From a virus (taxonomy: Duplodnaviria > Heunggongvirae > Uroviricota > Caudoviricetes): a stretch of DNA of 13,515 nt. The position numbers and the translations under genes were made by a program. The stretch's first letter is position 1. Each line of letters opens with the position of its first letter. The stretch lies in IMG/VR virus record IMGVR_UViG_3300028952_000008, positions 1 through 13,515 of that record. One strand, 5' to 3'. Of the stretch, positions 1 to 13,515 are shown piece after piece. Under the pieces are notes generated by a model. It did not search any database. It was not told where the DNA came from and saw nothing but the letters and a program-made list of their open reading frames with translations.

Positions 1-1678
1 TCAGCGTCTGCCCGTTCCATACCGGCATACAGCGCATCGCCGAGCAGAAATCACTGAGCACATCCCACGCCTTACGCTGCGTGGTCAGCCAGGCATTACA
101 GGTGATGCGCGGCTCCGTGCCGCCAAAGCCGTCCGGCACCGACTGGTCGCAGTACTGGCCGATGACATACAGCGCCCATTTATCCACATCCGACGCACCA
201 AGACGTTTTCCCATGCCGTAGCGCGGATGGGTCAGCATATCCCACAGACACCAGGCCATGTTGTTGCTGTATGCTGGCTTAAACGTTCCGTCCCAGATAC
301 CGCTGTATTGTCGCGTCTGCGGGTTATAGTTCGACGGCACCTGCAGAATGCGCCCGCGAAGATGATAATTACGACTCACCTGCTGGCTGCCGAACTGCTC
401 CGAGTCCACCTGTACGCCGACCAGTGCCGTGTTCGGGTAGCACTGTTTCACATCGATGATTTCGGTGTATGACGACCAGAGCGTTTTGTTCTGCAGCTGG
501 TCTGTGGTGCTGTCCGGCGTCATCCTGCGCATCCGGATATTAAACGGGCGCGGCGGCAGGTTATCCACCACCACCGAGGCCAGATACTGCGAGGTGGTTT
601 TGCCTTTAATGGTGATGTCTTTTTCCGTCACCCAGCCACCGTTACGCTGTATCTGAACCAGCAGGCGGACTTCCGACGGATTCCGGTCCCCCTTTGAGGT
701 GGTTTCCACCAGTGCCTGCACACCGAAGGTAAAGCGCAGACGGTCGATGTTTGCAGACGTGATGGTCCGGGTAATCGGCGTGTCGTACTTCACTTCCGTA
801 CCCAGCACCGTCTCGGAGCCGGAGGATTCAAATCCCTCCGGCGGTGTCTGCTCCTGCTCACCGGCCCGGAACACCACCGTGACACCGGAGATATTGGTAT
901 TCCCCTCCCCGCCATGCATGATCTCCACCATGCGCTGCGTCATTCGGACAAATCCATTTTCAATAGCCTGCTGATAATCAATGATCACCAGCGCCGACTC
1001 CTCGAAAAGGCACTGAATTTCAGCGGGGGCATGAGCGTAATAGTCCGCAATTCTGCTGAAATTAAACACCGTGTGACGTTCTGCCGCACACAGGAGGAAT
1101 TTCTCAATATCAGGATCAAGGGACGCCGAACGTATCCGGCTGATCAGCTCCTGAGTTTTCGTATCGTCGTACAGTTCACTGATATCCGGTTTACCGCCCG
1201 ACGGCTCATAAACAGGCGTATCAATTTTCGTCGTATACGGCTCCTCCTTATTTCCTATACCGGGCAAAACATCCGTCAACAGTTCATCAATTTCTGTCGG
1301 GCCGAAGCCTGTCAGGGAGACATCAAAATCAGCATTGATTAGGACCGACAGCTCCATCCGCAACAGATCTTCATCCCAGCCAGCATTCATCGGTAGGCGA
1401 TTATCTGCCAAGCGGTACGCCTTTTTCTGCTCATCCGTCAGGCCAGACAGAACAATGACCGGAACAGAATCCATTTTGAGCATTTCAGCCGCCATAACAC
1501 GACCGTGACCCGCAATAATTTCGCCCTTTTCGTCAATCAGCACCGGATTAGTCCAGCCGAATTGCTTAATACTTTCTACCAGTTGTGCCACCTGCTCAGT
1601 ACTGTGCGTCCTGGCGTTGTGCGCATACGGTGACAATTCTTGTAATGGGCGATAGACTATCTTTAATTTCTCGCTCAT
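1..1678 (-). CDS. Chimeric ORF, 3'-truncated by the window edge: N-terminal ParB-like nuclease domain fused in frame to a lambda J-like tail tip / host-specificity protein segment (J-like part about nt 2-908)
   Basis: Hand translation from ATG at 1676-1678 (SD AAGG about 5 nt upstream) gives MSEKLKIVYRPLQELSPYAHNARTHSTEQVAQLVESIKQFGWTNPVLIDEKGEIIAGHGR..., a ParB/sulfiredoxin-type N-terminal motif. The frame stays open to ...EGNTNISGVTVVFRAGEQEQTPPEGFESSGSETVLGTEVKYDTPITRTITSANIDRLRFTFGVQALVETTSKGDRNPSEVRL..., which I recognise as phage lambda J from about residue 57. The frame was translated without a stop from 1678 down to about 661 and spot-checked at nt 2-58 (...LSDFCSAMRCMPVWNGQTL); nt 59-660 were not translated and continuity there is assumed. 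Absent from the ORF track because no stop lies inside the window. Confidence 0.75.
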   Translation of the reverse strand, partial: MSEKLKIVYRPLQELSPYAHNARTHSTEQVAQLVESIKQFGWTNPVLIDEKGEIIAGHGRVMAAEMLKMDSVPVIVLSGLTDEQKKAYRLADNRLPMNAGWDEDLLRMELSVLINADFDVSLTGFGPTEIDELLTDVLPGIGNKEEPYTTKIDTPVYEPSGGKPDISELYDDTKTQELISRIRSASLDPDIEKFLLCAAERHTVFNFSRIADYYAHAPAEIQCLFEESALVIIDYQQAIENGFVRMTQRMVEIMHGGEGNTNISGVTVVFRAGEQEQTPPEGFESSGSETVLGTEVKYDTPITRTITSANIDRLRFTFGVQALVETTSKGDRNPSEVRLLVQIQRNGGWVTEKDITIKGKTTSQYLASVVVDNLPPRPFNIRMRRMTPDSTTDQLQNKTLWSSYTEIIDVKQCYPNTALVGVQVDSEQFGSQQVSRNYHLRGRILQVPSNYNPQTRQYSGIWDGTFKPAYSNNMAWCLWDMLTHPRYGMGKRLGASDVDKWALYVIGQYCDQSVPDGFGGTEPRITCNAWLTTQRKAWDVLSDFCSAMRCMPVWNGQTL

Positions 1679-1690
1679 ACAGCCTTGCTT

Positions 1691-1729
1691 TATGAATAAA
1701 ACGCACCCCAGCAGCCAGTGCTACTGGGG
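1691..1729 (-). terminator. Candidate intrinsic terminator downstream of trkG
   Basis: Minus-strand hairpin CCCCAG-12 nt loop-CTGGGG (1706-1711 / 1724-1729) followed on the minus strand by UGCGUUUUAUUCAU. Short stem and long loop, so weak. Confidence 0.35.
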
Positions 1730-1815
1730 GCGGAGGTGTTGCTGGTAAAGTTAGGTATTGGATCAATGAGTGAGTCAATATAATATTAAACTCACAATTA
1801 TAAATCAGCCATATA

Positions 1816-3273
1816 TTAGGAGCGCCAAAAAAAAACTGAAAACAATATAATAACAGGATAAATTTCAAGGCGACCAAGAATCATAGCTATGCACATTAAA
1901 TATTTTGCAATGTCATTAAGCACTCCGAATGACGATGCAGTAGCCCCAAAACCTAATCCCATATTATTAATACATGCAGCCACTGTTGCAAATGATGTAA
2001 GAAAATCATATCCCATACCATTTAACACCAGTATAAAAAACACCGTGAAGAGAGTATAAAGAAAAAAGAAACTCCATACAGACCTCATTACACGATCTGT
2101 AACTATCTTCCCTCCTACATTTACACTCAACAACGCTCTGGGATGAGAAAGCTGATTTATCTCGTGTTTGCTTTGTTTGAAAAGTATAAGAAATCGAAGT
2201 GACTTAATTCCACCACAAGTTGAACCTATACATCCCCCAAAGAAACTTGACAACAGCAAAAACACTATCGTGTGCGTGGGCCAGTTTGCATAATCTTGCG
2301 TAGCTAAACCATTATCAGTGAGCATGGAGCTGGCAAGAAAAAACGAATGAATAAAACTTCCATGCAAGTCATACATACCTATATGCCAGACCTGGAAAGA
2401 GGTAACAATGATCACCACTAAGGCTATTAACAGAAAGAAACGAAGTTCAATATCTCTGATTAAAGGTTTTATCGTTTTTCTGCTAATAACAATATACCAA
2501 AGAGTAAAGTTGAAAGCCGATAGCAGGGAAAAAGCACCAGCCACCAGCTCAACCAAATAGTTATTAAAATATCCGATACTCTCGCTATGAGTTGAGAAAC
2601 CACCAAGCGAAACTGTGGAAATCCCGTGACAAATAGCATCAAACAAAGGCATTCCTGCAAGTCTATAACAGACAATACAAGCAATACCTAATAAAGAATA
2701 AGTTATCCACAGTGTCCGTGACGTATCGGCCAGGCGGGGAGTGAGTTTGTCATCCTTAAATGGCCCCGGCATTTCTGACTGATAAAGCTTTGCACCACCA
2801 ATACCCAATAATGGCAATACTGCAACCGCCAGAACAATAACTCCTAAACCACCTATAAAATTTAACTGTGACCGATAGTACAAATATGCCCGAGGTAATG
2901 AACTAACATCATCAATTACAGTTGCTCCTGTTGTTGTTATTCCAGAAACCCCTTCAAACAGAGCATCAATGAACGTTAAATTAAGTTCTGAGTCAATCCA
3001 TAAAGGGAATGCACTAATAACAGAAAACAAAATCCAAAACATTACAATTATAATAAACCCATCACGGGTACGTAATTGAATGCCAGATTTCTTAGTTGTA
3101 TACCACGCTCCGCCACCAATGCAAAAAAATATAACGAAAGTTATAAAGAAAACGAACAGGCTTTTTTCTTTATAAAACAATGCTACAACCATTGGTGGCA
3201 ACATTGAAAGACTATAGAGCCAAACCAGGAACCCACACATATGAGTAACAACTCTTACATGAGATGTATTCAT
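1816..3273 (-). CDS. trkG: TrkG/TrkH-family potassium uptake protein (485 aa)
   Basis: ORF-track ORF 1816..3291 begins at a TTG; the first ATG at 3273 gives 485 aa starting MNTSHVRVVTHMCGFLVWLYSLSML.... Multi-pass membrane protein with repeated glycine-rich pore-like motifs (TTTGATV, LGGFSTHSESIGYF, NNMGLGFGAT). Visibly AT-rich compared with neighbouring phage genes. Confidence 0.88.
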   Translation of the reverse strand: MNTSHVRVVTHMCGFLVWLYSLSMLPPMVVALFYKEKSLFVFFITFVIFFCIGGGAWYTTKKSGIQLRTRDGFIIIVMFWILFSVISAFPLWIDSELNLTFIDALFEGVSGITTTGATVIDDVSSLPRAYLYYRSQLNFIGGLGVIVLAVAVLPLLGIGGAKLYQSEMPGPFKDDKLTPRLADTSRTLWITYSLLGIACIVCYRLAGMPLFDAICHGISTVSLGGFSTHSESIGYFNNYLVELVAGAFSLLSAFNFTLWYIVISRKTIKPLIRDIELRFFLLIALVVIIVTSFQVWHIGMYDLHGSFIHSFFLASSMLTDNGLATQDYANWPTHTIVFLLLSSFFGGCIGSTCGGIKSLRFLILFKQSKHEINQLSHPRALLSVNVGGKIVTDRVMRSVWSFFFLYTLFTVFFILVLNGMGYDFLTSFATVAACINNMGLGFGATASSFGVLNDIAKYLMCIAMILGRLEIYPVIILFSVFFWRS

Positions 3274-3410
3274 ATCTAAATATTCTTTCAATTATAACCA
3301 CCTTGCTGCAATATTATGATTATACTGTATAAAATTTAACTCCTCTTAGATCTTACTTCACTGTTCCTTATGAAACAATCATCAAAATGAATCATATTGT
3401 AGTTAAGATT

Positions 3411-3875
3411 TTACTTTAAACACTGTTCGGTTATGTATTGCTGAGCACCTTCAAGTTGGGCCTGCATCATTACCAGTCGTTCCCGGAGGGTGAAATAATC
3501 CCGTTCAGCGGTGTCTGCCAGTCTGGGGGAGACTGCATTATCCACGCTGGAGGTGGCGGTGGCTTCACGCACTGACTGACAGACTGCTTTGATGCGCAAC
3601 CGACGACGACCAGCGGCAACATCATCACGCAGAGCATCATTTTCAGCTTTCGCATCAGCTAACTCCTTCAGGTATTTTGCATCGAGTGCAGCAACATCAC
3701 GCTGGCGTATCTGCATGTCAGTAATGATTGCGGTCGCCTGGTTGAGTTTTTCCGTCACATTATCGCGTTGCGCTTTGTAGGTAATGGCATTATCACGGTA
3801 ATGATTAACAGCCCATGACAGGCAGACGATGATGCAGATAACCAGAGCATAAATAATCACGGCAACTCTGCTCAC
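3411..3875 (-). CDS. rzpR: Rz i-spanin (inner-membrane spanin subunit)
   Basis: Translation ...[38 protein letters not shown]...[14 protein letters not shown]... closely resembles lambda Rz. The ORF-track start at 3890 is a TTG; a GTG at 3873-3875 overlaps the endolysin stop (GTGA) and gives a lambda-Rz-like length of 154 aa. Confidence 0.85.
3470..3655 (-). CDS. rzoR: Rz1 o-spanin lipoprotein, embedded in the +1 frame of Rz
   Basis: [61 protein letters not shown]: lipobox LVVVGC followed by a proline-rich stretch, wholly inside the Rz gene in another frame, as in lambda Rz1. Confidence 0.85.
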
Positions 3876-4405
3876 TGCTCTATCCCCCAACAGGCTAATG
3901 CGCTCTCCTGATCACGACGAATAACCTGACCGTAACAGTTATTTGAACGAAGGCGGCAATCGCGCCCCCTGTCCTTAATCCACCAGCGAATCGCCTCGCA
4001 GGCACCTTTACGATCACCTGCATTCAGCCGCTTATAAAATGTCGACGGAAAACACTTAGCGGGGCCAATGTTATAGGGACAAAATGACGCGATACCCGCT
4101 TTTTGTGGTTCGGTCAGTGTTACTTTAATATTGCGATCCACCCATGCCAGCGCCTTATCACGCTCAATGGCATTAACCTGATCGCATTTTTCCTTCGTCA
4201 GCCTCATTCCCGGTATGACGGGCTTACCATCCACCATTGTGGCACCACGACAGATGGTCCATATACCGGAACCATCGCGGTATGCCGTTGTGTGGTTACC
4301 TTCTTTTTCATCCAGAAACTGGTCGAGAATATCAGGCGCAGGCGCACCGACGGCAATCAGTGCCAGAACGGCAGCCGACAGGCCGTATCTGATTTTTGCG
4401 TTCAT
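3872..4405 (-). CDS. SAR endolysin (T4-lysozyme-like muramidase with N-terminal signal-arrest-release domain, phage 21 R type)
   Basis: 177 aa; N-terminal Ala/Gly-rich weakly hydrophobic segment [24 protein letters not shown], then E-x8-D-x5-T catalytic spacing ([18 protein letters not shown]) as in the phage 21 SAR endolysin. Partner pinholin lies upstream. Confidence 0.85.
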
Positions 4406-4510
4406 GGATATTTATCAGGATTTATCGGTTTCTGAACCCTGGATATGTTTATCTGTCCCGGCCTGTTGAATCAGGCAAGGAATAGTTAAATACAATAGAG
4501 AGGATTATTT

Positions 4511-4783
4511 ATGGACAATAGCACCATTTCTCTACAGGAGTTGCTCGACTGCATTTCCAGGCTTCGGGATGATGTAAATGCCCTTACTGTCGCATTTTCA
4601 TATCTGGCATTCTCAATTCCCAAGGAACAAATGCAACCAACACTGGCATCGCTCCAGCTTGAATCACTCAACCCCAAATGGTCCCAGCAACAACAAAATT
4701 CTTTCAAGTGGCTGGCGGTATTACTGGAAGAAAAATATGCTGGTGAAATTACCATTTCGGCGGAGTCTTCAGTGAACCAGTAA
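4511..4783 (+). CDS. Hypothetical 90-aa protein encoded antisense to the lysis cassette
   Basis: ATG at 4511 preceded by GAGGA about 8 nt upstream; protein-like composition (MDNSTISLQELLDCISRLRDDVNALTVAFSYLAFSIPKEQMQ...). Fills an otherwise unexplained ~340-bp gap between the endolysin start and the upstream gene's stop. Overlaps the 3' end of ORF 4749..5093 convergently by about 35 nt. Confidence 0.4.
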   Translation: MDNSTISLQELLDCISRLRDDVNALTVAFSYLAFSIPKEQMQPTLASLQLESLNPKWSQQQQNSFKWLAVLLEEKYAGEITISAESSVNQ

Positions 4784-5093
4784 TTCTTCCCGGCAGTTTT
4801 CCTTTGTAGGTTATCCGCACACCCTGCGCCTCTAAAATTATGGGGCGCTTTTCCGGTGACTGCTCATCCCCTTCACATAACCCGGCAGCAACATCCAGGA
4901 AGACCTGTCTGATGCTTCTTCTGGCTGCTGCCTCATAAAACTCCAGCGCGGCACCTTCAACACGGTCCAGCGAGATGTCCAGGTCTAAAATTTCACCGTC
5001 AAAGCGTTTTTTGTCCCGTAACGCTAAAGTTACCGTAACTTTATTCTCAAAATTGCGGATCCCTTTCACAATCAGTTCATAGTTTTGAGTCAT
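4749..5093 (-). CDS. Hypothetical 114-aa protein between holin and endolysin (YdfR/DUF1327-like by position)
   Basis: ATG at 5093 lies 4 nt after the holin stop, with the holin C-terminal codons GGAGAG acting as SD (translational coupling). Soluble-looking protein MTQNYELIVKGIRNFENKVTVTLALRDKK.... The family assignment is from recalled gene order in the Qin prophage (essQ-ydfR-rrrQ), not from sequence identity. Confidence 0.6.
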   Translation of the reverse strand: MTQNYELIVKGIRNFENKVTVTLALRDKKRFDGEILDLDISLDRVEGAALEFYEAAARRSIRQVFLDVAAGLCEGDEQSPEKRPIILEAQGVRITYKGKLPGRITGSLKTPPKW

Positions 5094-5097
5094 TGAA

Positions 5098-5304
5098 TTA
5101 CTCTCCCCGTGCAGCCTTACGCTTATCTTCTTTAATCTTGAAATAAAGATTTGTCAGATACGTCAACAGGCCAAACACCAGACTACCCAGCACACCTATT
5201 GCTGCCCACTGTGAGGGCGTGACTCTATCGAGCAACTGTAAAAACCAGTAGCCAGCACTGCCTGCGGAGGTGCCATAGGCGACACCTGTTGTTAACTTAT
5301 CCAT
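5098..5304 (-). CDS. Class II holin, pinholin of the phage 21 S type
   Basis: 68 aa [68 protein letters not shown]: two TM segments plus a charged C-terminus, near-identical to the S21 pinholin as I recall it. An in-frame TAA two codons upstream rules out a longer antiholin form. Confidence 0.88.
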
Positions 5305-5364
5305 GGATTAAGGACCACCAGCCCAAGCTCAGGCACCAGAACAGGTCTAAGTAATACCCGCACG

Positions 5365-5637
5365 TTACCTCCAGATCCGTTGCTGGAAAGTGCGGGACGG
5401 ACGTGGTGGGCGTTCGGAATAAGGCAGCCTGACAGAGATTATCCAGTGCCGATAGTCGAGACTGAGAGCTTTCTTAACCTCGAACCCGCGCCTGCGGTAA
5501 GAATGAATCAGCCATTCGGCCTGTTCTTCAGTACATGGTGGGTGTTGGTACCAGTCGGTTTTAAATGCGTGTGAACGCCGCTCATGCCGGATGGCAAGGT
5601 CGGTATCAGAATTGTGAAATTTGGTTTTGTGCGCCAT
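5365..5637 (-). CDS. Hypothetical 90-aa basic protein immediately upstream of the holin
   Basis: ATG at 5637 with only a weak SD (AGAGAAAACAG-ATG); His/Arg-rich (MAHKTKFHNSDTDLAIRHERRSHAFKTDWYQHPP...). It sits 60 bp upstream of the holin and downstream of a strong terminator. No recognisable family. Confidence 0.4.
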   Translation of the reverse strand: MAHKTKFHNSDTDLAIRHERRSHAFKTDWYQHPPCTEEQAEWLIHSYRRRGFEVKKALSLDYRHWIISVRLPYSERPPRPSRTFQQRIWR

Positions 5638-5707
5638 CTGTTTTCTCTGCTGGCGCAGCAGGTGTCAGGTGTTCAGGCTGACGTGCGAATTGTAAACCAG
5701 AATGCCA

Positions 5708-5736
5708 GGAAAAAACAAAACCCGCCGAAGCGGGTT
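5708..5736 (-). terminator. Rho-independent terminator (hok mRNA 3' end, possibly also a late-operon tR'-like terminator)
   Basis: Minus strand reads AACCCGC-UUCG-GCGGGUU followed by UUGUUUUUUCC: a 7-bp GC-rich stem, tetraloop and U-tract, about 70 nt after the hok stop. Confidence 0.7.
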
Positions 5737-5804
5737 AAGTGCGGGTGCGTTGAGGATGCCTGACACATCAGAGGTGGCGAGGGATTTCTCCCCCGCCAGG
5801 TCTC

Positions 5805-5960
5805 TTACTCCTCAGGTTCGTAAGCTGTGAAGACAGCGACCTCCGTCTGGCCGGTTCGGATTCGTACCTCGCAGAGGTCTTTCCTCGTTACCAGTGCCGT
5901 CACTATGACGGTTAAACAGATGACGATCAGGGCGATTAACATCGCCTTTTGCTGCTTCAT
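5805..5960 (-). CDS. hok: Hok/Gef-family type I toxin (51 aa)
   Basis: Not in the ORF track (<60 aa). Hand translation: MKQQKAMLIALIVICLTVIVTALVTRKDLCEVRIRTGQTEVAVFTAYEPEE, with N-terminal TM helix and conserved C-E...R.G..EVA.F.AYE; SD AAGGAG 9 nt upstream. As I recall, near-identical to HokD/RelF and Gef. Confidence 0.9.
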   Translation of the reverse strand: MKQQKAMLIALIVICLTVIVTALVTRKDLCEVRIRTGQTEVAVFTAYEPEE

Positions 5961-6016
5961 AGCCTGCTTCTCCTTGACCTTTCGGTCCGTAAGAGGCTAA
6001 TCTCTATGTGTCGCAT
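5957..6016 (-). promoter_or_regulatory. hok leader with a translationally coupled 19-codon upstream ORF (mok-like)
   Basis: Minus-strand ATG at 6014-6016 opens MRHIEISLLRTERSRRSRL, ending in TGA that overlaps the hok ATG (ATGA). The uORF start sits in the palindrome TCTATGtgtcgCATAGA (6002-6019). Confidence 0.4.
5974..6003 (+). promoter_or_regulatory. Candidate promoter for a Sok-like antisense RNA
   Basis: Plus-strand TTGACC (5974-5979), 18-bp spacer, TAATCT (5998-6003); a transcript from about 6010 rightward would be antisense to the hok leader and uORF start region. No RNA evidence. Confidence 0.3.
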
Positions 6017-6218
6017 AGATATGGCCTCAGATTAATGTTAAGCGTCTTGCAGGACGCGTAATGTTAACTGGGGCTTTTCTCTATCTGCCTTTTGGTGTTC
6101 ATGCCTGAGACAGATAGCCTCAAGCACCCGCAGTTATTCTACTTAACTAAGATTTCCCCGCAAACCGTTTTTGTCCGGCACAGTAAATATCCAACTAAAC
6201 CAATGGCGTTCGCTGTAT

Positions 6219-6398
6219 TTACCGCCAGTATTCAATGCACATGACCGCCATGAACACCCCTAAAAAAAGGGCATTTATATGTCCAAACATTAATATCAAA
6301 ACATCAATTTTTTCCATATACCTTGCTGTGAAGATGATGGGCATACATGATGCGAACAACCAGAACGCAACAAACAAAAACTGCAATGCGTTTTTCAT
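6219..6398 (-). CDS. Hypothetical small membrane protein (59 aa) in an AT-rich island
   Basis: The ATG at 6398 (not the ORF-track start 6437) has a strong SD AGGGGGA 5 nt upstream. MKNALQFLFVAFWLFASCMPIIFTARYMEKIDVLILMFGHINALFLGVFMAVMCIEYWR has two hydrophobic segments. Surrounding sequence about 6230-6520 is markedly AT-rich. Confidence 0.5.
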   Translation of the reverse strand: MKNALQFLFVAFWLFASCMPIIFTARYMEKIDVLILMFGHINALFLGVFMAVMCIEYWR

Positions 6399-6518
6399 TA
6401 TTCCCCCTACAATCAATGTGCAATAACATTTAAACACACCTCAATTTGGCCGGACATATAAATATCTAAACCAGAAAAAATCACTTACATAGCGTTACAA
6501 ACTCTTTAGTCTAAATAT

Positions 6519-7034
6519 TCATCGTAAAACATCCTCCACGCTTATCAGTCCATTTCGTTTCAGGTAATCTATCGCCTTCTCCGGTAATTTGCAGTCCGGC
6601 TGAGCTTTTTTCAGTTGACTGACCAGTCGTTTAACCCACATTGTTAATTCGCTAACCTGATTGCCGGATGCTGGTGGATTGTCGGCTTTACCCAGAATGG
6701 CAGCGCAGCAGGCCTCTCTGAGCACCCAGTCAACAGCATCCTTCCATGCTCCTGTTTCGACTGGCGGATTCTCACGCTTTACCTGTTCATAAAAGCGCAC
6801 GGCTTTAACCAGTCCTTCTGATGTCACCGGGACTGGCGGGCCGATGAATAAGGCCTGAATTTCATAGTTCGGCCTGTCGTTACAATCCTCTTTTGTCGGT
6901 ACATATTTCCAGTCACCAGCCCACGGCTTCCCCTGAAAGTCTGTAACGTCTTTTTTCACGTAGCGATATCGCCATGCAACTGGTTTTGCCTGCCCTGCCG
7001 TTTCATGCCCTTCCTGATAATTAATCTCGCTCAT
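6519..7034 (-). CDS. Hypothetical 171-aa protein, last gene of a three-gene coupled operon
   Basis: ATG at 7034 overlaps the stop of the upstream 58-aa ORF (ATGA). Long ORF with normal composition (MSEINYQEGHETAGQAKPVAWRYRYVKKDVTDFQGKPWAGDWKYVPTKEDCNDRP...). No recognisable family. Confidence 0.7.
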   Translation of the reverse strand: MSEINYQEGHETAGQAKPVAWRYRYVKKDVTDFQGKPWAGDWKYVPTKEDCNDRPNYEIQALFIGPPVPVTSEGLVKAVRFYEQVKRENPPVETGAWKDAVDWVLREACCAAILGKADNPPASGNQVSELTMWVKRLVSQLKKAQPDCKLPEKAIDYLKRNGLISVEDVLR

Positions 7035-7207
7035 TCATCGCCCCACTCATCACAATATGCTTCGACCGGAGTTTTTCCTGCTTCATAATCATCACGCCAT
7101 GCTTCAGCATCAGCAGCACTGCCACCACGTAACTCTGCATAGTCCATTAACAGTTCATGCCATGCTTCAAAACTGACGTTGTATTTAGTTGAACCAAAAT
7201 CAGCCAT
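7031..7207 (-). CDS. Hypothetical small acidic protein (58 aa)
   Basis: Not in the ORF track. Hand translation MADFGSTKYNVSFEAWHELLMDYAELRGGSAADAEAWRDDYEAGKTPVEAYCDEWGDE; by my count 15 Asp/Glu against 4 Lys/Arg. Its start overlaps the stop of the 60-aa ORF (ATGGCTGA) and its stop overlaps the next start (ATGA). Confidence 0.55.
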   Translation of the reverse strand: MADFGSTKYNVSFEAWHELLMDYAELRGGSAADAEAWRDDYEAGKTPVEAYCDEWGDE

Positions 7208-7382
7208 TTTGCTCTTCCTCTTCGTCTTTTATTTCGTGATGTGAGTAATTGCAGTAGTTAAAGAAAATATCTTTTGCTTCGTCATGTATTTCATCAGGCG
7301 TCGCATCATCATCCACTTCGAATTCATCCTCGAAATCTCCACCGGCTATTTCCGTTTCAATAATTATTTTAAACTTTCGCAT
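7200..7382 (-). CDS. Hypothetical small, extremely acidic protein (60 aa)
   Basis: MRKFKIIIETEIAGGDFEDEFEVDDDATPDEIHDEAKDIFFNYCNYSHHEIKDEEEEQNG; by my count 21 Asp/Glu against 5 Lys/Arg. AT-rich coding sequence. Upstream SD AGGAGG is separated from the ATG by a stable hairpin. Confidence 0.6.
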   Translation of the reverse strand: MRKFKIIIETEIAGGDFEDEFEVDDDATPDEIHDEAKDIFFNYCNYSHHEIKDEEEEQNG

Positions 7383-7388
7383 TTAACT

Positions 7389-7411
7389 ACCGCCCTTTCG
7401 GGCGGCCTCCT
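7389..7411 (-). promoter_or_regulatory. SD-hairpin-start arrangement upstream of the 60-aa acidic ORF
   Basis: mRNA reads 5' CAUCAGGAGG-CCGCCC-GAAA-GGGCGG-UAGUUAA-AUG: a 6-bp GC stem with GNRA loop sits between SD and start codon (linear spacing about 23 nt, about 7 nt if folded). Confidence 0.4.
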
Positions 7412-7475
7412 GATGTTCTGAGGGTGCAGAAATCCCTCCGGTTAAGGATTAAATTTTTAACAGAGCTAAATTTAA

Positions 7476-7832
7476 TTATTCAGTTCTGGATTTTGTCGCC
7501 CTGCGTATCCGCGCTTTCGCGTTACGCTCAATCTGAATTAGCTTTTCTATATTTTTTCGCCTTTCCCGCTCCTCCTGACGCAAGAGCCTTACATCATCTG
7601 CCAGTCTGGTTTCTCTTTTCGCCACAGAGAGCATCCAGTCAAATGGCTCCACAACTGCACCGCAGATTTTACAGCGGACCTGACGCTCTTTTTCGTCAAC
7701 CCGGACAGAGGCGTGATGACAATATGGTCTTTCCGATGGCTCATAAAGAAAATTAACCTGATTACGAGGGTCATCCTCTTTTACCGGAAATAAAACGATA
7801 TTGCTTAACTCATCCTCTGGTTTTATTTCCAT
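7476..7832 (-). CDS. Hypothetical zinc-ribbon protein with a basic coiled C-terminus (118 aa)
   Basis: ATG at 7832 with strong SD GGAGAGGAG. Contains PYCHHASVRVDEKERQVRCKICG (Cys/His cluster with C-x2-C) and an Arg/Lys/Glu-rich tail LLRQEERERRKNIEKLIQIERNAKARIRRATKSRTE. Confidence 0.7.
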   Translation of the reverse strand: MEIKPEDELSNIVLFPVKEDDPRNQVNFLYEPSERPYCHHASVRVDEKERQVRCKICGAVVEPFDWMLSVAKRETRLADDVRLLRQEERERRKNIEKLIQIERNAKARIRRATKSRTE

Positions 7833-7875
7833 GCTCCTCTCCTTTGATGCGAATGCCAGCGGTAATTGAAGCCTN

Positions 7876-7885
7876 NNNNNNNNNA
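7876..7885. other. Assembly gap (10 N)
   Basis: Run of n characters; true length and content unknown. Confidence 0.99.
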
Positions 7886-7896
7886 GCTAATTTCAC

Positions 7897-8319
7897 TCAC
7901 AGTACCGCCTCCTGAAAATTACCCTGATAGAAAGCCAGTACACGCTGCATAGCTTCACTCTTCCGGCACTCGCGACAGATTATGTTTAGGCGACTGTCGT
8001 AGCGACGTATTTCTCCGTCAGGTAACGACCAGATAAGGTCCGGATCAACCACAACCGGTTTCTTCAGCTTTGCCCTCGATAATTTTTTGCGGGCATTTTG
8101 CCAGTCTTTACGAGCCTGTTCAGACGGGAATAACCCGTAGCCAGAATTGTATACATCGCCACTGGCAACCAGCTCTCTGGCCAGAACGCTCATCAGATAT
8201 CTTGTCGCCCCCGTTTTAGCTTCCAGTTGTCGTAACGTCTCTCGCCCGCTCTGGCGTACAAGATCAACAATCTGCCCTTTAATTTTTTCTCGCTCTTCCT
8301 GTGTAAATACTTTTGCCAT
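7897..8319 (-). CDS. Hypothetical 140-aa protein (possible N-terminal helix-turn-helix)
   Basis: The ORF-track start at 8385 is a TTG; the ATG at 8319 has strong SD GGGGAGGG 4 nt upstream, giving MAKVFTQEEREKIKGQIVDLVRQSGRETLRQLEAKTGATRYLMSVLARELV.... The stop is only 12 bp from the assembly gap. Confidence 0.6.
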   Translation of the reverse strand: MAKVFTQEEREKIKGQIVDLVRQSGRETLRQLEAKTGATRYLMSVLARELVASGDVYNSGYGLFPSEQARKDWQNARKKLSRAKLKKPVVVDPDLIWSLPDGEIRRYDSRLNIICRECRKSEAMQRVLAFYQGNFQEAVL

Positions 8320-8335
8320 AAGCCCTCCCCAGGAA

Positions 8336-9061
8336 TCACTTTTCCGACACAATACGACTGGAGGAATCGACAATCTGACGGACAATATCCTGGTGCTTGT
8401 TCAGCTCACGCAGCGCGGCGCAGACTCGCTCCCACTTCTGGACATAACTTTTCGCCCGGCGCAGTTCGCGGTTTGCCATTTGCAGCGATGGTATAATCAG
8501 GTCATTGGCTCGCGTTTCAGTGAACGATGGTAGTGACTGCACAATGTCCCCCACAGTATCTGTTTTAATTTCTTCCTGTGTTGCCGCTTCCTGTACTGGT
8601 AACGCAACACCGGCTGGCTGAGGAAAGCCTTTACCAGGTGTTTTCACTACCGATACAACTTTCGGCTCTGCTGGTAAATTACCGTCCGGCAGGCAGTAAC
8701 GAAATTTACCGTTCTGATTTACGCGAATCAGACGACCTTTGCTGATGGCCATAGCCAGCGATGAGTTCACCCTGCGGGAAGTAATTCTGAATATCAGTGC
8801 AAGTTCATCAGCCGCTTTAGGGCCATGCTGTTCAATCGCCTCGATCAGCATTTGCGCTGTCACTTTAGAAGCCTGTGCTACAGATGCGTTTTCGTCGGTT
8901 TGAGTCAACCACCACATCGGGCCCTTGTTATCAGCTTCCCCACGACGCTTCAGTTTCCACAGCTCGTTAATCGCCTCATCCCGGGTCATTCCCAGACGTG
9001 CTGCCACTTCCTGGGAAGAGGCTTTTCCCATTGCTTTCAGTGCGTCAAAAACGGTCTCCAT
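8336..9061 (-). CDS. Hypothetical 241-aa protein with winged-helix-like N-terminus, directly downstream of ydaV
   Basis: The ORF-track ATG at 9112 would overlap ydaV by 29 nt; the ATG at 9061 follows SD GGGAGG (8-nt spacer), 22 nt after the ydaV stop. METVFDALKAMGKASSQEVAARLGMTRDEAINELWKLKRRG... looks like a wHTH. Position corresponds to ydaW of K-12 Rac as I recall it. Confidence 0.6.
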   Translation of the reverse strand: METVFDALKAMGKASSQEVAARLGMTRDEAINELWKLKRRGEADNKGPMWWLTQTDENASVAQASKVTAQMLIEAIEQHGPKAADELALIFRITSRRVNSSLAMAISKGRLIRVNQNGKFRYCLPDGNLPAEPKVVSVVKTPGKGFPQPAGVALPVQEAATQEEIKTDTVGDIVQSLPSFTETRANDLIIPSLQMANRELRRAKSYVQKWERVCAALRELNKHQDIVRQIVDSSSRIVSEK

Positions 9062-9083
9062 TAAAATTTCCTCCCGGTAAAAA

Positions 9084-9830
9084 TTACTTCTCAATTCCTG
9101 GCTGACCAACATTCGGGCGCCAGCTCTCCCAGTTAAAATTCACCCATCGCCCGCCGTTCATGGTCATCCGATCCATAATCCTCTCGCCGAGCAATGTTTT
9201 CATGGCCTCATAGTTCAGGTTTGTCAGCATCCCCACGCTGCGGATCGACGCTGTCCGGCGATCAACAATCTGGTGCAGTACCACCTGCTCGTTTTTTGTC
9301 TCGCGCTGAATGCCAATTTCATCAAGAACCAGCAGATCCACTTCGCACAGTTCCCGCAAAAATTTTTCGCCTGATTGCCCGTCGTCATAGCTGGCGTGTA
9401 GAGCACTCATAACATCAGCCACGGTAACCACAATCACTGTCTGACCGTTTTTCAGCAGGCGATTCCCGATAGCCGCCGCCAGATGGTTTTTTCCGGTACC
9501 AGGTTTTCCGCTAAACGCAAAATTTGTACACCCGACCATCAGTTCATCGGCGATGGATTTCGCCTGGCTCAACGCGTATCGCTGGCCGTCGTTCTGCACC
9601 TGGTAATTCGAAAACGAGCATTTGCGGTGCAACGGCTGGATGCCGGAGCGATTCAGAATTTTTTCCACCCGCAACTGACGATTCTGGCGATTGATCTCCT
9701 CGCAACGTTTCTGGCCTTCTGCAAGTTGCCACTCGCGCCACTCCGCCACCGTCCTGAATGGCGCGGTTACATGTGGCGGGGCCAGTCTGCGGATACGTTC
9801 CAGAACGCCGCCTGTCGCAATATTTTTCAT
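9084..9830 (-). CDS. ydaV: DnaC/IstB-like AAA+ replication protein (helicase loader)
   Basis: 248 aa; Walker A-like GKPGTGKNHLAAAIG and Walker B LLVLDEIG; located immediately downstream of the ydaU-like initiator. Confidence 0.9.
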   Translation of the reverse strand: MKNIATGGVLERIRRLAPPHVTAPFRTVAEWREWQLAEGQKRCEEINRQNRQLRVEKILNRSGIQPLHRKCSFSNYQVQNDGQRYALSQAKSIADELMVGCTNFAFSGKPGTGKNHLAAAIGNRLLKNGQTVIVVTVADVMSALHASYDDGQSGEKFLRELCEVDLLVLDEIGIQRETKNEQVVLHQIVDRRTASIRSVGMLTNLNYEAMKTLLGERIMDRMTMNGGRWVNFNWESWRPNVGQPGIEK

Positions 9831-9836
9831 GGTCAG

Positions 9837-10625
9837 TTACCCCCTGAAGCCTGGCGGGATCGCACTGTCCGGAAACGAGACAGTGTTAACCTGTCGGAGC
9901 AACGTCTCAGGCCGAACACTTTTCGGCGCGAACAAGCCCTGGTATTCATTGGCGATGCTGTGTCGAATCACCTGCTCAGGGGTAAAACCCTGCTGGCGGA
10001 ATTTTTCCAGTTCCCGTATCGCCCCGTTAGCGCCCTGCTCCGTTCGAATCGGTTTTCGCAATGCCTGCCTGAACTGGACCCACTCATTCCAGAGTGTTTC
10101 TGGCAACCAGTCGGGCAGAGCAATGGCCTCCGGCTCGAATTGTTTAGACGCTCGTTTTTGCCGAGGGGGATTTAGGGGGAGATCAGTATTTATATCTTCC
10201 TCTTCCTCTTCCTCTGGTAACGCTTTTTGATCCGTTTGTGTAACGCTGGCAGCGTTACCTTTTCGCTTCAGTTCGCGTATTTTTGTAACTCTCTCGTTTG
10301 TAACCGCCCGTTTTTTCGAGCTTTTTCCGTTATGACGCTCAAAGTTTGGTAGTGAAAGCACTCCATCACTTTCGACCAGCCATCCAACCTGAATTAACGC
10401 ATCAGCAAAACCAGCCATAAAAGTGATACGGTCTATTGCACTTTTTGTAACGCCTCGAGCGTTACACTCTGCGTTACCGTCTATCATTTGTTGATCCGCC
10501 CATGCCCAGAAGCGAATGACTTTCCCTAATGCGGCATCTGGATCAATATTCAGAATCTCAGCAAGCCTGAATATTTCCGGCTTATCCGGCGTAATAACTT
10601 CGAGCTTTATCCAGTTTGAAGCCAT
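9837..10625 (-). CDS. ydaU: Putative phage replication initiator / replisome organiser (YdaU-like)
   Basis: 262 aa, ATG at 10625 with SD AAGGTG; acidic run EEEEEED mid-protein. The 5' half of the gene contains two 19-bp palindromes, reminiscent of lambda ori lying inside gene O. Immediately precedes the DnaC-like gene. Confidence 0.75.
   Translation of the reverse strand: MASNWIKLEVITPDKPEIFRLAEILNIDPDAALGKVIRFWAWADQQMIDGNAECNARGVTKSAIDRITFMAGFADALIQVGWLVESDGVLSLPNFERHNGKSSKKRAVTNERVTKIRELKRKGNAASVTQTDQKALPEEEEEEDINTDLPLNPPRQKRASKQFEPEAIALPDWLPETLWNEWVQFRQALRKPIRTEQGANGAIRELEKFRQQGFTPEQVIRHSIANEYQGLFAPKSVRPETLLRQVNTVSFPDSAIPPGFRG
10240..10258. repeat. 19-bp palindrome GTAACGCTGGCAGCGTTAC (copy 1, inside ydaU)
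   Basis: Direct reading; 7-bp arms GTAACGC/GCGTTAC with 5-bp spacer; an extra GTAACGC half-site at 10217-10223. Confidence 0.85.
10447..10465. repeat. 19-bp palindrome GTAACGCCTCGAGCGTTAC (copy 2, inside ydaU)
   Basis: Direct reading; same 7-bp arms; an extra GCGTTAC half-site at 10471-10477. Confidence 0.85.
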
Positions 10626-10638
10626 TTGTTTTCACCTT

Positions 10639-10657
10639 GTAACGCTCGCAGCGTTAC
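10639..10657. repeat. 19-bp palindrome GTAACGCTCGCAGCGTTAC (copy 3, 13 bp upstream of the ydaU start)
   Basis: Direct reading; same 7-bp arms; lies between the ydaT stop and the ydaU SD. Confidence 0.85.
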
Positions 10658-10667
10658 ATTTAACTGA

Positions 10668-10689
10668 TACCGAACAAAACAGTTCGGTA
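10668..10689 (-). promoter_or_regulatory. Intercistronic hairpin between ydaT and ydaU
   Basis: Perfect 8-bp inverted repeat TACCGAAC-N6-GTTCGGTA, 14 bp after the ydaT stop; downstream minus-strand sequence is only moderately U-rich, so a regulatory or processing hairpin is more likely than a strong terminator. Confidence 0.45.
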
Positions 10690-10702
10690 CGATTAATTTC
10701 AA

Positions 10703-11125
10703 TCAATGCACTACGACAGAATCGCTAGGAGAACCGCCGCCGCTGAAATGTGCTTTACGGTAAACGGCCTGGACTGCATCATCATGCGCATCAATTGCCG
10801 TACTCAGTGCATCCTGTGCCGCCAGTAATGCACGGCGTTCCAGGGTATCGAAGATGCAGAGTCGGTGACGCAGCTCGCGAGGAAGAATTGCCAGAACCGC
10901 AGGGATCAGTTTCTGAATTTTTTCCCTTTGCGCATTCGTTTCACCTTTCAACCAACGATGATAGATATTCTGCTGATTGTTCCAGTCCTTGCCTGGTACC
11001 AGGGGCAATTCGCCGCCCCCCTGGCGCAGATATTCTTCAGTAATTGCGTTAGCGACCCACGCCTGCCCTTTTTCGGCTGCCAGGGCTAACAACACTGATT
11101 CGATGTGCTCATGCTTGATTTTCAT
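10703..11125 (-). CDS. ydaT: YdaT-like protein (140 aa)
   Basis: 140 aa MKIKHEHIESVLLALAAEKGQAWVANAITEEY...; start overlaps the ydaS stop (ATGA). Size and position match Rac ydaT as I recall it. Confidence 0.8.
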   Translation of the reverse strand: MKIKHEHIESVLLALAAEKGQAWVANAITEEYLRQGGGELPLVPGKDWNNQQNIYHRWLKGETNAQREKIQKLIPAVLAILPRELRHRLCIFDTLERRALLAAQDALSTAIDAHDDAVQAVYRKAHFSGGGSPSDSVVVH

Positions 11126-11376
11126 GAATCAACTCCCATCAGCTTTTTCGTAGTAGTTTTATTTCTGCCAATAGTTAAAATTGCATCGGCAGAAAATAAT
11201 CCGTTTGATGCATGAGCGATTTTTTCAGCGTAATTTGTTTCGCCGGTATATTCTGTGCGAGGCAATTTTCCGTTATCCATCCATTTGTAGATTGCTCTTT
11301 GGCTGACACCACAAACGTCGGCCACAACAGAAACGCGAACAGTTTTGATTACATCTTCAAGTGTTTTCTGGTTCAT
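11122..11376 (-). CDS. ydaS: Cro-like HTH protein YdaS
   Basis: The ATG at 11376 has SD GAGGA; the ORF-track start at 11448 would put the N-terminus inside the operator region. MNQKTLEDVIKTVRVSVVADVCGVSQRAIYKWMDNGKLP... contains a helix-turn-helix. Divergent from racR. Confidence 0.8.
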   Translation of the reverse strand: MNQKTLEDVIKTVRVSVVADVCGVSQRAIYKWMDNGKLPRTEYTGETNYAEKIAHASNGLFSADAILTIGRNKTTTKKLMGVDS

Positions 11377-11455
11377 ATCATCCTCACAATGTGAACTTTG
11401 AGTACATGCTATAACAGAACTGACAGTACATTCAAGAGCGAATATCATTGAACTT
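11377..11455. promoter_or_regulatory. Divergent promoter/operator region between ydaS and racR (OR-like)
   Basis: 79-bp intergenic region with two direct AGTACAT motifs (11401-11407, 11425-11431) and AT-rich -10-like hexamers; racR has no clear SD, consistent with a near-leaderless maintenance transcript. Confidence 0.55.
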
Positions 11456-11875
11456 ATGGTTCATGAAGATAAAGCGCGTAAAGAGTTCGCCAGTAGGCTT
11501 GCGCTAGCCTGTGAAAACGCTGGTTATGAACAACATGGAAGGCAGGCAGAAATTGCCCGTCGAATGAAATTAACACCAAAAGCGGTTAGCAAATGGTTTA
11601 ATGGTGAAACAATTCCTCGCCGAGAGAAATTAAGGGAATTAGCAACACTCATTGGAACAACACCAACCTATCTTTTGGGAGAGGATACAGAAGAAAGTGG
11701 ACAGATACGTTTCTATCAGGAGTTAAATCCAAGACAAAAAATCATCATTGACCTTCTGGACGAGCTCCCTGACAGTGAGACAGATGAACTTTTAAAAACT
11801 CTTGAGGAGAAAAAACAGAAGTACAATGCAATTTACGAAGAGTTAGCACGAAAGAAAAAACAAAAAGCCTCTTAA
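11456..11875 (+). CDS. racR: XRE-family HTH prophage repressor
   Basis: 139 aa; HTH RQAEIARRMKLTPKAVSKWFNGETIPRREKLRELATLIG near the N-terminus; divergent from the Cro-like ydaS. The only in-frame ATG after the upstream stop is at 11456. Confidence 0.8.
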   Translation: MVHEDKARKEFASRLALACENAGYEQHGRQAEIARRMKLTPKAVSKWFNGETIPRREKLRELATLIGTTPTYLLGEDTEESGQIRFYQELNPRQKIIIDLLDELPDSETDELLKTLEEKKQKYNAIYEELARKKKQKAS

Positions 11876-11939
11876 ACCAGCATAAATCCGGTAGCGTCCC
11901 CCTCCGGGTTTGTGCTTCACTTTATCCCGTCTCATTTTT

Positions 11940-12000
11940 TTATACATAAAATGTACTTAAAGTACTTTACAATGATGAACACAAAGTACATTATATACCT
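11940..12000. promoter_or_regulatory. Second operator-like cluster downstream of racR (OL-like)
   Basis: ATGTACT (11951-11957) and AGTACAT (11985-11991) form an inverted pair around the palindrome AAGTACTT (11960-11967); TTTACA and TATATA promoter-like hexamers nearby. Confidence 0.45.
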
Positions 12001-12173
12001 ACCAACCCACCCCGCCCCACAGAACGCCGGGCAATACTTCGAGTTACCAGGCAGTGGTCAGGGGTTAAGTAGCCAGCCCGAGGCGTATGAACATGACGGC
12101 GGGGTTCAACTTTAATAACTATGCAGCAGGTTTTTGTTCCGCTACCCCGGCGTTAAGGGGAAATGAGGTCAGC

Positions 12174-12329
12174 ATGGATACTATCGATCTTGGCAACAAC
12201 GAATCTCTGGTGTACGGCGTGTTTCCAAACCAGGACGGCACCTTCACCGCAATGACGTATACAAAAAGCAAAACGTTTAAAACCGAAAATGGTGCGCGCC
12301 GATGGTTGGAGAAGCACACAGTAAGCTAA
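12174..12329 (+). CDS. Small hypothetical protein (51 aa), YdaF/YdaG-like by position
   Basis: ATG at 12174 with SD TGAGGT 6 nt upstream: MDTIDLGNNESLVYGVFPNQDGTFTAMTYTKSKTFKTENGARRWLEKHTVS. The ORF track extends it to an ATG at 12087 that has poor SD spacing. Confidence 0.5.
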   Translation: MDTIDLGNNESLVYGVFPNQDGTFTAMTYTKSKTFKTENGARRWLEKHTVS

Positions 12330-12814
12330 CGATTAAAACGTCTACTCCTGCTGTTCCAGAATAACTTCATAAAATGGGAGTATTTTTCGGTGACGAGATA
12401 ATAAGAACAGTTTGCGCTATCACTCTGATGTTGAATGATGCCCTTCCGTTCTAATTTTTTCATAACCGGGTTACGGCAAGGAGAAGTGATAATAAGATTT
12501 CCTGTTTTAAGGAAATCTTTAAATACAGCGATTTCTTTCTCAGATAAACGAAGCAATACTCGTTGCTCTGGTAGTAATGAATAATGCTTTTGAATATGTG
12601 CTCGCAATCTTGAGAAGGAAATGGCGACCACGAAAGAAAAGGCAAAAACGATAATCTGAAAGAGCCAAGGTATTTCAGTATAAGCATTGAATGCGACAGT
12701 AAACTCTTTCGGTATCAGCCAGAGAGTGAGACCAAAAATGATAATCGTATACATAAGTCTTTCGAGTGGCTCGTTAGCAAAAAGTTTCAACAATGGAGTA
12801 AATACATCCAACAT
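12326..12814 (-). CDS. sieB: Superinfection exclusion protein B
   Basis: The ATG at 12814 gives 162 aa, MLDVFTPLLKLFANEPLERLMYTIIIFGLTLWLIPKEF...IPWLFQIIVFAFSFVVAISF..., with two TM segments; the ORF-track start 13126 is a GTG extension. Size and position match Rac sieB as I recall it. Confidence 0.8.
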   Translation of the reverse strand: MLDVFTPLLKLFANEPLERLMYTIIIFGLTLWLIPKEFTVAFNAYTEIPWLFQIIVFAFSFVVAISFSRLRAHIQKHYSLLPEQRVLLRLSEKEIAVFKDFLKTGNLIITSPCRNPVMKKLERKGIIQHQSDSANCSYYLVTEKYSHFMKLFWNSRSRRFNR

Positions 12815-13254
12815 ATCAATAACTCTCAACTGTAAGGGTATTGAAATGTTAACACAAGCTCTCGCTGTAGGGGTATAGCCGAGACCACCGAAGCCCGGAG
12901 GTGGTGAAATAAAACCGGGCACAACACGAAGGCGCATTTCCGATATCCATAAAGAGTCGGTCTTGTCTGTTAAATTTAAATGGTGGAGTGCGCCTCCGGT
13001 TGTAAATAACGACATTGCTGTGTGTAGTCCTGGCGGCATCAGTTTTTTTCTTGAAGTTCGGCTGATGTCCGCCCTTTTTAAAGTGAATTTTGTGATGCGG
13101 TGAATGCGGCTAAGCGCACGTGGCACAGTTAAAAGTCATGTTAGTCCTTATTGGTTTGGGTGGGAAAGCCGACTGTAATTGTTAACTGGTTGCAGTCACC
13201 TGGAGGCACCAGGCACCGCATCAACAAAGTTCATTTGTAAAAATGGAGATAATT

Positions 13255-13440
13255 ATGATTGCACATCACTTCGGAACTGATGAAATACCACGTCAGTGTG
13301 TGACTCCTGGCGATTATGTTCTTCATGAAGGCCGGACATATATTGCCTCGGCAAACAATATTAAAAAGCGAAAACTATATATTCGTAACCTGACCACAAA
13401 AACATGCATTACTGACCGGGTAATGACTCCAACTTATTGA
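13255..13440 (+). CDS. kilR: Small protein (61 aa) at the position of KilR (Rac FtsZ/division inhibitor)
   Basis: ATG at 13255 with SD GGAG 6 nt upstream (the ORF-track start 13243 lacks an SD): [61 protein letters not shown]. Assignment rests mainly on position divergent from sieB. Confidence 0.5.
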
Positions 13441-13515
13441 TAGTGTTTTATGTTCAGATAATGCCCGATGACTTTGTCATGCAGCTCCACCGATTTTGAG
13501 AACGACAGCGACTTC

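Follow-up and report, generated by a model that had tools for sequence, protein, structure and literature searches.

The window analysed here (the whole 13,515-nucleotide stretch, positions 1 to 13,515 of IMG/VR record IMGVR_UViG_3300028952_000008) is a Rac-type lambdoid prophage of E. coli, and this report concerns a small minus-strand gene within it that encodes a hydrophobic protein of 59 amino acids. Its best whole-window matches are 99.4-99.6% identical and include gpJ, trkG, the lysis cassette, hok, ydaV/U/T, the repressor pair, sieB and kil. Genes from about 5000 to about 11400 lie on the minus strand, indicating that early-right transcription runs from high to low coordinates. The small gene sits within this array, immediately before hok in the direction of transcription (hok coding sequence 5805-5960 on the minus strand, HOK_GEF E=1.2e-23), in agreement with the original prediction, which had been made from the letters of the sequence and described the stretch 6219-6518 as an AT-rich island encoding a two-helix membrane protein next to hok.

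The encoded protein is MKNALQFLFVAFWLFASCMPIIFTARYMEKIDVLILMFGHINALFLGVFMAVMCIEYWR. The 72-residue version that an open reading frame (ORF) lister starts at GTG 6437 was rejected, as its upstream frame is not conserved in the sister copy described below and GAGG stands too close to the GTG. The 59-codon ORF is preceded by a Shine-Dalgarno (SD) sequence that had been called very strong, and this description holds: the duplex predicted with the 3' end of 16S rRNA has an energy of -9.3 kcal/mol, stronger than at the mok/hok site (-8.5) or in the sister (-4.8), and the core is mostly unpaired in the predicted RNA ensemble. A G/A polymorphism at 6405 is common among related loci and keeps or improves the motif (AGGAGG). 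The AT-richness is also real, with 35.3% GC at 6219-6518 and 36.4% at 6176-6518 against 46.7% for the whole window, but it is a local dip only; a 200-nt profile falls to 0.355-0.385 over the ORF region between flanks of 0.44-0.53, and the window's AT-richest DNA is in the trkG region (1700-3400, down to 0.30 GC). Coordinates of the gene and its surroundings are collected in Table 1.

Table 1. Features of the 59-residue protein gene, its cassette and its surroundings (window positions unless a locus is named)
Feature	Position	Strand	Remarks
nin-region gene, 171 amino acids	6519..7034	-	phrog_660, function not assigned; its last 80-165 nt travel with the cassette
Leader, 120 nt	6399..6518	-	between the stop of the 171-residue gene (6519) and the ATG; no above-chance sigma-70 site
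5' arm of 12-nt perfect inverted repeat	6452..6463	-	AUUUAUAUGUCC in the sense RNA, -65 to -54 from the ATG
Shine-Dalgarno AGGGGG	6403..6408	-	4 nt before the ATG; allele at 6405 gives canonical AGGAGG
Coding sequence of the 59-residue two-helix membrane protein	6219..6398	-	ATG 6398-6396, stop 6221-6219; conservation in sister, hydropathy, structure model
3' arm of 12-nt perfect inverted repeat	6273..6284	-	GGACAUAUAAAU, codons 39-42 (G-H-I-N)
T7 homopolymer run	6262..6268	-	codons 44-47; main site of frameshift variants
3' flank of gene, left border of cassette	6176..6218	-	hok-locus homology with other phages ends at 6149-6175
Predicted hok promoter, outside the cassette	6136..6163	-	-35 TTGCGG 6163-6158, 16-nt spacer, -10 TAGAAT 6141-6136
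hok/mok/sok module	5719..6129	-	hok coding sequence 5805-5960; terminator 5719-5736
mok start; sok	~6017; ~6009-6079	sok +	by homology to the 933W annotation, mapped via the alignment offset
Sister gene	L086 5001-5180 (also L087-L091, L213-L215)		no counterpart in the window; same length, 44% identity
Dead hok 3' fragment	L086 5235-5300		55 nt past the sister stop

A conserved gene with a sister at ttcA-uspF

Homologues of the protein were found in two clades only, whether by single-sequence, profile or exhaustive searches. The second clade emerged from an exhaustive HMMER search of 1.84 billion representatives, which recovered a 59-residue sister (P0037/P0042) that aligns over its full length without gaps at 44% identity (E=4.8e-10). 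Word-indexed searches returned near-identical E. coli and Shigella proteins only, along with many truncated or frameshifted variants, and a scan of 185,579 GTDB species representatives found relatives only in two Shigella flexneri genomes (two loci). Models from Pfam (at E<=0.01 and E<=10), PHROG, NCBIfam and PADLOC (at E<=1) gave no match to the protein; a sub-threshold match of the sister to DUF4212 (E=0.07) was dismissed. Homology searching, a kind of check that the original prediction had suggested, brought to light a distant relative and no described family, and by these comparisons the protein is an unclassified family of two clades, limited to E. coli and Shigella.

The sister P0042 is encoded between ttcA and uspF, the Rac attachment site, within a 2.3-kb decayed Rac-type remnant that consists of an integrase fragment, a fragment of DUF1627 (ydaW-like), about 650 bp of AT-rich DNA, the 59-codon ORF, a 3' fragment of hok, and a frameshifted metal-ABC permease. 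Gene order and orientation are the same as in the window, which indicates that the adjacency of ORF and hok predates the split of the clades; at the sister locus a later deletion of about 300 bp took away sok together with the promoter, leader and N-terminal half of hok. A single copy of the remnant is carried by each of 1044-1045 among 5426 complete E. coli genomes, with CFT073, Nissle 1917, ATCC 11775 and E2348/69 as examples, and, like the prophage copy, the ORF of the remnant is not annotated in the RefSeq records inspected. Across nine remnant genomes 70 of 2280 alignment columns vary, of which one falls in the ORF (M6V) where 5.5 would be expected (Poisson P ~0.03), a deficit that suggests purifying selection on the sister ORF in the absence of hok, as far as a test on nine genomes can be read. 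Also present at this locus is a 12-codon upstream ORF, MLNYALIVNHRD (L086 4962-5000), whose TGA ends 2 nt before the main ATG, and the leaders of the sister and window copies share TTGATTGT, with a length difference of 8 nt.

A codon alignment of the two clades gave pN 0.33 and pS 0.72, corresponding to a ratio of nonsynonymous to synonymous divergence (dN/dS, or omega) of about 0.19 (chi-square on counts, p ~4e-5), and identities at the three codon positions were 34, 42 and 29 of 59. The frame of the ORF is the only one open in both copies, the five other frames having stops in at least one of them. Disruption of the ORF in prophage copies had been named as an observation that would count against it, and was looked for in 118 IMG/VR contigs picked by a DNA pattern flanking the T7 run, a choice blind to reading frame and protein; the intact 59-codon ORF was found in 115 of them (~97%). 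Given the low dN/dS relative to the sister, the sole shared open frame and the prevalence of intact copies, the ORF at 6398-6219 on the minus strand is, by comparative evidence, a genuine protein-coding gene. The T7 run is seven nucleotides long in 116 of the 118 contigs and six in the other two, and variants of T6 and T8 type in the databases yield truncated or extended products.

Hydropathy and structure prediction agree on the small two-helix hydrophobic membrane protein that was originally proposed. Kyte-Doolittle maxima over 19 residues, both exceeding 2.1, reach 2.14 (from residue 7) and 2.15 (from residue 33) and span residues 7-25 and 33-51, with a grand average of hydropathy (GRAVY) of 1.2, and an AlphaFold2 model built on both clades has helices at 2-24 and 30-58 (mean predicted local distance difference test score, pLDDT, 72). 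A Foldseek comparison of this model with BFVD and the PDB retrieved generic helical hairpins only (best E 0.6). Residues conserved between the clades are W13, S17-C18-x-P20-I21-I22-x-T24, L36-x-F38-G39-(H/Y40)-x-N42-A43-L44 and E56-x-W58-R59, and among these the polar or small residues S17-C18-x-P20 and G39-H/Y40-x-N42 lie at matching depth in the two helices. With basic residues at each end of the chain (K2 or R2-K3; R59) and a short connecting loop of neutral to acidic character, the protein would probably adopt an N-in/C-in topology in the inner membrane.

An optional cassette beside the hok module

The island was searched for in the 5426 complete E. coli genomes with positions 6180-6530 as the query, at a threshold of at least 95% identity, and was found at 1632 places in 1568 genomes; the hok module is commoner, with 12276 places in 4939 genomes. 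Only 3 of 115 phage records that match hok carry the island. Alignments of the hok locus to 933W, Rac 442/2 and HannyBb run out at window positions 6149-6175, and in these island-less phages unrelated genes occupy the same slot. At the opposite border the similarity among 80 related loci reaches 80-165 nt into the 3' end of the upstream gene before it breaks off at a mosaic breakpoint, 6599, 6665 or 6684. From these alignments the island is an optional AT-rich cargo cassette of about 340 bp (~6176-6518) at a mosaic junction between nin-like early genes and the hok/sok module. It is always followed by hok, except where an insertion sequence (IS) has replaced the hok coding sequence (L004, L079-L084) or lies between the two genes (L029), and the ORF is intact where an IS has replaced hok. 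Within the cassette the leader is the most variable part, with 9-13 variable sites in 120 nt versus 6-9 in the 180-nt ORF, and the 3' flank (6176-6218) has an imperfect hairpin, which takes in the stop codon, but no U-tract terminator.

Other features of the island were examined and set aside. Direct repeats of 25 nt, in two pairs, flank the ORF or overlap with it (6170-6194/6445-6469 and 6281-6305/6509-6533; 72% and 76% identity), one containing a GGACATATAAAT-like motif that also occurs in the 12-nt inverted repeat discussed below, but they were judged compatible with chance in AT-rich DNA. In phage records ON470612, ON470619 and PV340562 an opposite-strand ORF is annotated over the island as 'hornerin' or hypothetical (L001 3543-3794, L004 3062-3313). 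Its window equivalent, plus-strand 6235-6426, was rejected: the product is not hydrophobic and the frame has stops in the sister copy, so that the 'hornerin' annotation is probably wrong.

In a fuller relative, strain CH4796, the gene order is hok, a 90-codon gene, DUF968, rusA, the Q antiterminator, two hypothetical genes and the holin gene. Relative to L216 4417-9089, about 4.2 kb comprising DUF968, rusA, the Q antiterminator and the two hypothetical genes is missing from the window, with the gap at about 5300-5640, and as a result the 90-codon gene (5365-5637) directly adjoins the holin gene (5098-5304). Loss of the DUF968-to-Q stretch leaves the lysis cassette without Q or a late promoter; in intact relatives DUF968-rusA-Q stand between hok and the lysis genes, which lie behind Q.

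The original prediction had placed the likeliest promoter for the hok-to-lysis region in the leader, 6399-6518, and this claim was not sustained. A promoter there, driving the ORF, hok and the downstream lysis genes, would be attractive in that the region is AT-rich and intergenic and the deleted prophage has nothing else obvious before the holin gene. However, a consensus scan of 5600-6700 found no promoter and a single terminator, the one after hok (5719-5736), and the best sense-strand position weight matrix (PWM) score inside the leader, 7.1, is below the median best score of shuffled sequence, 9.3. The leader is moreover the most polymorphic part of the cassette; hok has its own predicted promoter downstream of the ORF, and the lysis genes of intact relatives stand apart from hok, behind Q. 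Taken together, we regard a leader promoter as extremely improbable. The site assigned to hok, TTGCGG-16-TAGAAT, has the best sense-strand PWM score in 6100-6700, but 9.1 is no better than the shuffle median of 9.3 and by itself carries no significance; the site is taken as hok's own promoter because its predicted start (~6129) coincides exactly with the beginning of the hok leader homology, for which Rfam gives a hok/sok match at 5958-6129 on the minus strand (106.7 bits). That match is confined to the module, and an Rfam search at E<=1 over 6176-6518 returned nothing. On the plus strand over the island there was neither a promoter above shuffle level nor a terminator. Since neither a sigma-70 promoter nor a terminator belonging to the ORF could be detected, its transcription would most likely come from read-through of the early-right operon, and, with its SD strong and predicted to be largely unpaired, the message would be translated efficiently.

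Several observations concern the neighbourhood. In the two closest genomes RefSeq annotates hok as merely a 99-nt Hok/Gef gene (L085 6362-6460 and L216 9314-9412) and marks the upstream nin-region gene as a frameshifted pseudogene (L085 7069-7385 and L216 10021-10337), unlike in the window, where both hok (51 amino acids) and the upstream gene (171 amino acids) are intact. A weak Rfam match to the prophage small RNA (sRNA) IsrK (5715-5796, minus strand; 27.2 bits, gathering score 50) overlaps the hok 3' untranslated region and terminator, and near the kil/sieB end there are sub-threshold plus-strand matches to DicF (13019-13074; 39.1 bits, gathering score 48) and STnc100 (13076-13262; 35.5 bits, gathering score 47). 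Record PP818812.1, named Actinobacillus phage vB_Apl-pPE4, is 93.7% identical to the E. coli prophage region, and its host assignment looks doubtful.

Function of the protein: the alternatives weighed

We think it somewhat probable that the gene encodes a genuine two-helix inner-membrane protein, carried as optional cargo and transcribed by read-through, which serves as an accessory factor and works independently of Hok. Independence of Hok is indicated because the sister is intact where hok has been destroyed, and an accessory role because the SD is strong and accessible, no antisense partner is found, 97% of copies are intact, and the solitary sister varies little. Among functional readings an accessory inner-membrane factor would be the most likely. 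The polar and small residues at matching helix depth, together with the conserved C-terminal E-x-W-R, hint that the protein may act within the membrane, oligomerizing or docking on a host or phage membrane protein, and its role could be that of a superinfection-exclusion or defense protein, or of a membrane-protein modulator; both suggestions are tentative. The original prediction held that nothing in the sequence separates toxins, immunity proteins and exclusion factors, and indeed no database match decides among them. The evidence does narrow the options: the gene works independently of hok, and an accessible strong SD, no antisense partner and about 97% intact copies all argue against a tightly repressed toxin.

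Part of the case for a toxin lies in the RNA. A 12-nt perfect inverted repeat links the leader to codons 39-42 (Table 1), a match found in only 5-11 of 1000 dinucleotide shuffles; the helix closes the minimum free energy (MFE) and centroid folds of 6200-6520, and among 200 loci all repeat variants keep the pairing, as G:U or, in four loci, by a double change to A:U. Long-range pairing of leader with coding sequence recalls the folding of hok-type mRNAs. However, the helix is not robust, its probability dropping below 0.05 once the transcript is lengthened in either direction; the covariation control was not significant (231 of 500 shuffles), and a similar 10/11 complementarity in the sister has zero predicted probability. 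The repeat is rare by chance yet thermodynamically weak and without significant covariation. On the toxin reading the protein would be membrane-damaging (type I-like, GhoT-like with two helices, or a holin-like pore former), repressed at the RNA level and forming a second killer gene beside hok. Size and extreme hydrophobicity fit such a toxin, as do the ancestral position of hok downstream in both clades and the frameshift alleles at the T7 run. Set against this are the lack of an antisense or divergent promoter, sRNA or terminator on the plus strand, an SD that is strong and mostly unpaired, unlike those of typical type I toxins, the 97% of copies that are intact, a near-invariant sister with no partner gene, and a Pfam search that, relaxed to E<=10, gave no match among the Hok, GhoT/OrtT, Ldr and Fst families or the holins, and we consider a toxin unlikely. 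A related reading, which we rate as quite improbable, is that the 59-residue protein and Hok were two halves of an ancestral Rac-type membrane module, of which the former was domesticated alone in phylogroup B2 after hok was lost; the hairpin protein would then be either a new family of membrane toxin under a hok-like long-range mRNA fold, built on the 12-nt helix, or a membrane partner that tunes Hok-type killing or phage exclusion.

The conserved S17-C18 offers a different explanation, in which residues 1-17 would be the signal peptide of a small lipoprotein precursor cut at a lipobox (L-F-A-S|C18 here, I-V-I-S|C18 for the sister protein). The mature product, 42 residues long, would be anchored by its lipid, keep a single membrane helix at the C-terminal end and function much as Cor and Llp, which are exclusion lipoproteins, do. 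S17-C18 is invariant in both clades, K or R occurs within the first three residues, the stretch before the cysteine is hydrophobic and uncharged, and both sequences, by inspection, fit the PROSITE PS51257 lipobox pattern; small phage lipoproteins are, moreover, a known class of exclusion factor. The residues following Cys18 (M/V-P-I-I-F/L-T) are, however, atypically hydrophobic, conserved, and continue model helix 2-24, in a place where real lipoproteins have a polar tether, and by our own estimate a lipobox-like tetrapeptide should occur in about one in five cysteine-containing membrane helices. A lipoprotein thus seems a little less likely even than a toxin. More basic is the question of whether the frame matters at all, and several findings weigh against the accessory-protein interpretation in this respect. 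Variation of the ORF within the prophage clade (6-9 sites, including A16V, I31V, M37I and H40Y) is entirely nonsynonymous, if conservative in kind, a pattern that by our calculation has a chance of about 0.44^9 under omega 0.19, and that points to relaxed or diversifying selection in this clade as opposed to the constraint estimated between clades. Tyrosine replaces His40, conserved apart from this, in 30 of the 117 loci that could be aligned over their full length, and frameshift and truncation variants exist. At the sister locus B2 strains have kept the entire 2.3-kb remnant along with its pseudogenes, so that retention alone does not show selection, and the low-variation test covers nine genomes only. 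RefSeq's annotation pipeline (PGAP) does not call the gene in any record inspected, literature searches by peptide strings and by topic returned nothing on the protein, and its assignment as an exclusion factor or modulator is made by analogy. A non-functional or decaying frame, conserved through recent spread or as a DNA or RNA element of the hok region, would account for the nonsynonymous substitutions, the missing annotation and family models, and the truncated and fused variants in databases, and the 12-nt repeat hints at a feature at the nucleic-acid level. It would not account for a dN/dS of about 0.19 between copies that have the same length and termini at 44% identity and share a single open frame, for an SD that is preserved or improved, for the 115 intact copies, or for the reduced density of single-nucleotide polymorphisms in the remnant ORF, and hok loci work without the island at about 87% of places; we judge this explanation to be very unlikely.

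Significance and relation to known systems

If the gene is expressed, its product would be widespread: about 29% of complete E. coli genomes have the prophage form and about 19% the sister form (the two groups counted separately), and carriers include Nissle 1917, CFT073, ATCC 11775, ATCC 25922 and E2348/69. It illustrates concretely how a small protein of narrow taxonomic range escapes standard pipelines, as the inspected RefSeq records and the family databases cover neither copy. The sister in its fixed remnant, present in single copy with no hok and no phage, provides a clean genetic handle with which the role of a cargo protein can be probed. The practical consequence today is modest; the gene deserves annotation.

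Comparison with Hok/Gef proteins (PF01848) is suggested by the neighborhood, since both proteins are small, very hydrophobic, inner-membrane, prophage-borne and co-oriented, and the genes have been neighbors since before the clade split. The 59-residue protein nevertheless has no PF01848 match at E<=0.01 or E<=10, compared to 1.2e-23 for the adjacent hok, and whereas Hok has one N-terminal helix and a polar periplasmic tail, this protein has two hydrophobic helices. Its gene lacks a leader ORF of the mok kind, an Rfam search detects neither a sok-like antisense RNA nor a fold-back architecture, and the gene persists where hok has been deleted. The generic type I toxin-antitoxin plan is matched in the small hydrophobic peptide (59 residues, GRAVY 1.2) but not in an antisense RNA gene, for which neither a plus-strand promoter or terminator nor an Rfam match was found, the latter covering described sRNAs only. 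GhoT and OrtT are two-helix membrane toxins of type V toxin-antitoxin systems; they resemble the protein in length (about 57-59 residues), in their two predicted membrane helices and in their location on the E. coli chromosome or a prophage, but there is no Pfam match at E<=10, and the adjacent genes are phrog_660 and hok rather than a GhoS-like antitoxin gene. Class II holins and pinholins (S21 family, PF04971) are likewise phage-encoded proteins with two membrane helices in 60-70 residues. The window's own holin (5098-5304) scores 4e-35 where the 59-residue protein has no hidden Markov model match; the gene of the latter lies in the early (nin) region upstream of hok rather than in the lysis cassette and lacks a dual-start motif.

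Phage exclusion proteins and morons provide the remaining comparisons. Cor and Llp are small phage exclusion lipoproteins, and the lipobox-like S-C at residues 17-18, after a basic N-terminus and a hydrophobic stretch, recalls them; the hydrophobic residues after the cysteine and the second membrane helix that follows do not, and there is no homology. Phage morons and small membrane exclusion proteins include HK97 gp15, T4 Imm and SieB. The protein has no homology to exclusion or defense families in PHROG, Pfam or PADLOC, and its gene differs from the moron plan, an independently transcribed cargo unit of lambdoid phages, in having neither a sigma-70 promoter of its own (best 7.1 versus 9.3) nor a factor-independent terminator of its own (5600-6700). 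In other respects the likeness is close: a small inner-membrane protein encoded on an optional cassette of deviant composition (36% GC versus 44-53% in the flanks) between conserved modules, polymorphic in presence and absence (1632 versus 12276 places, with the break at 6149-6175), and with a copy in a cryptic remnant. In kind, then, the gene is ordinary prophage cargo, and its product is a real, unclassified small membrane protein.

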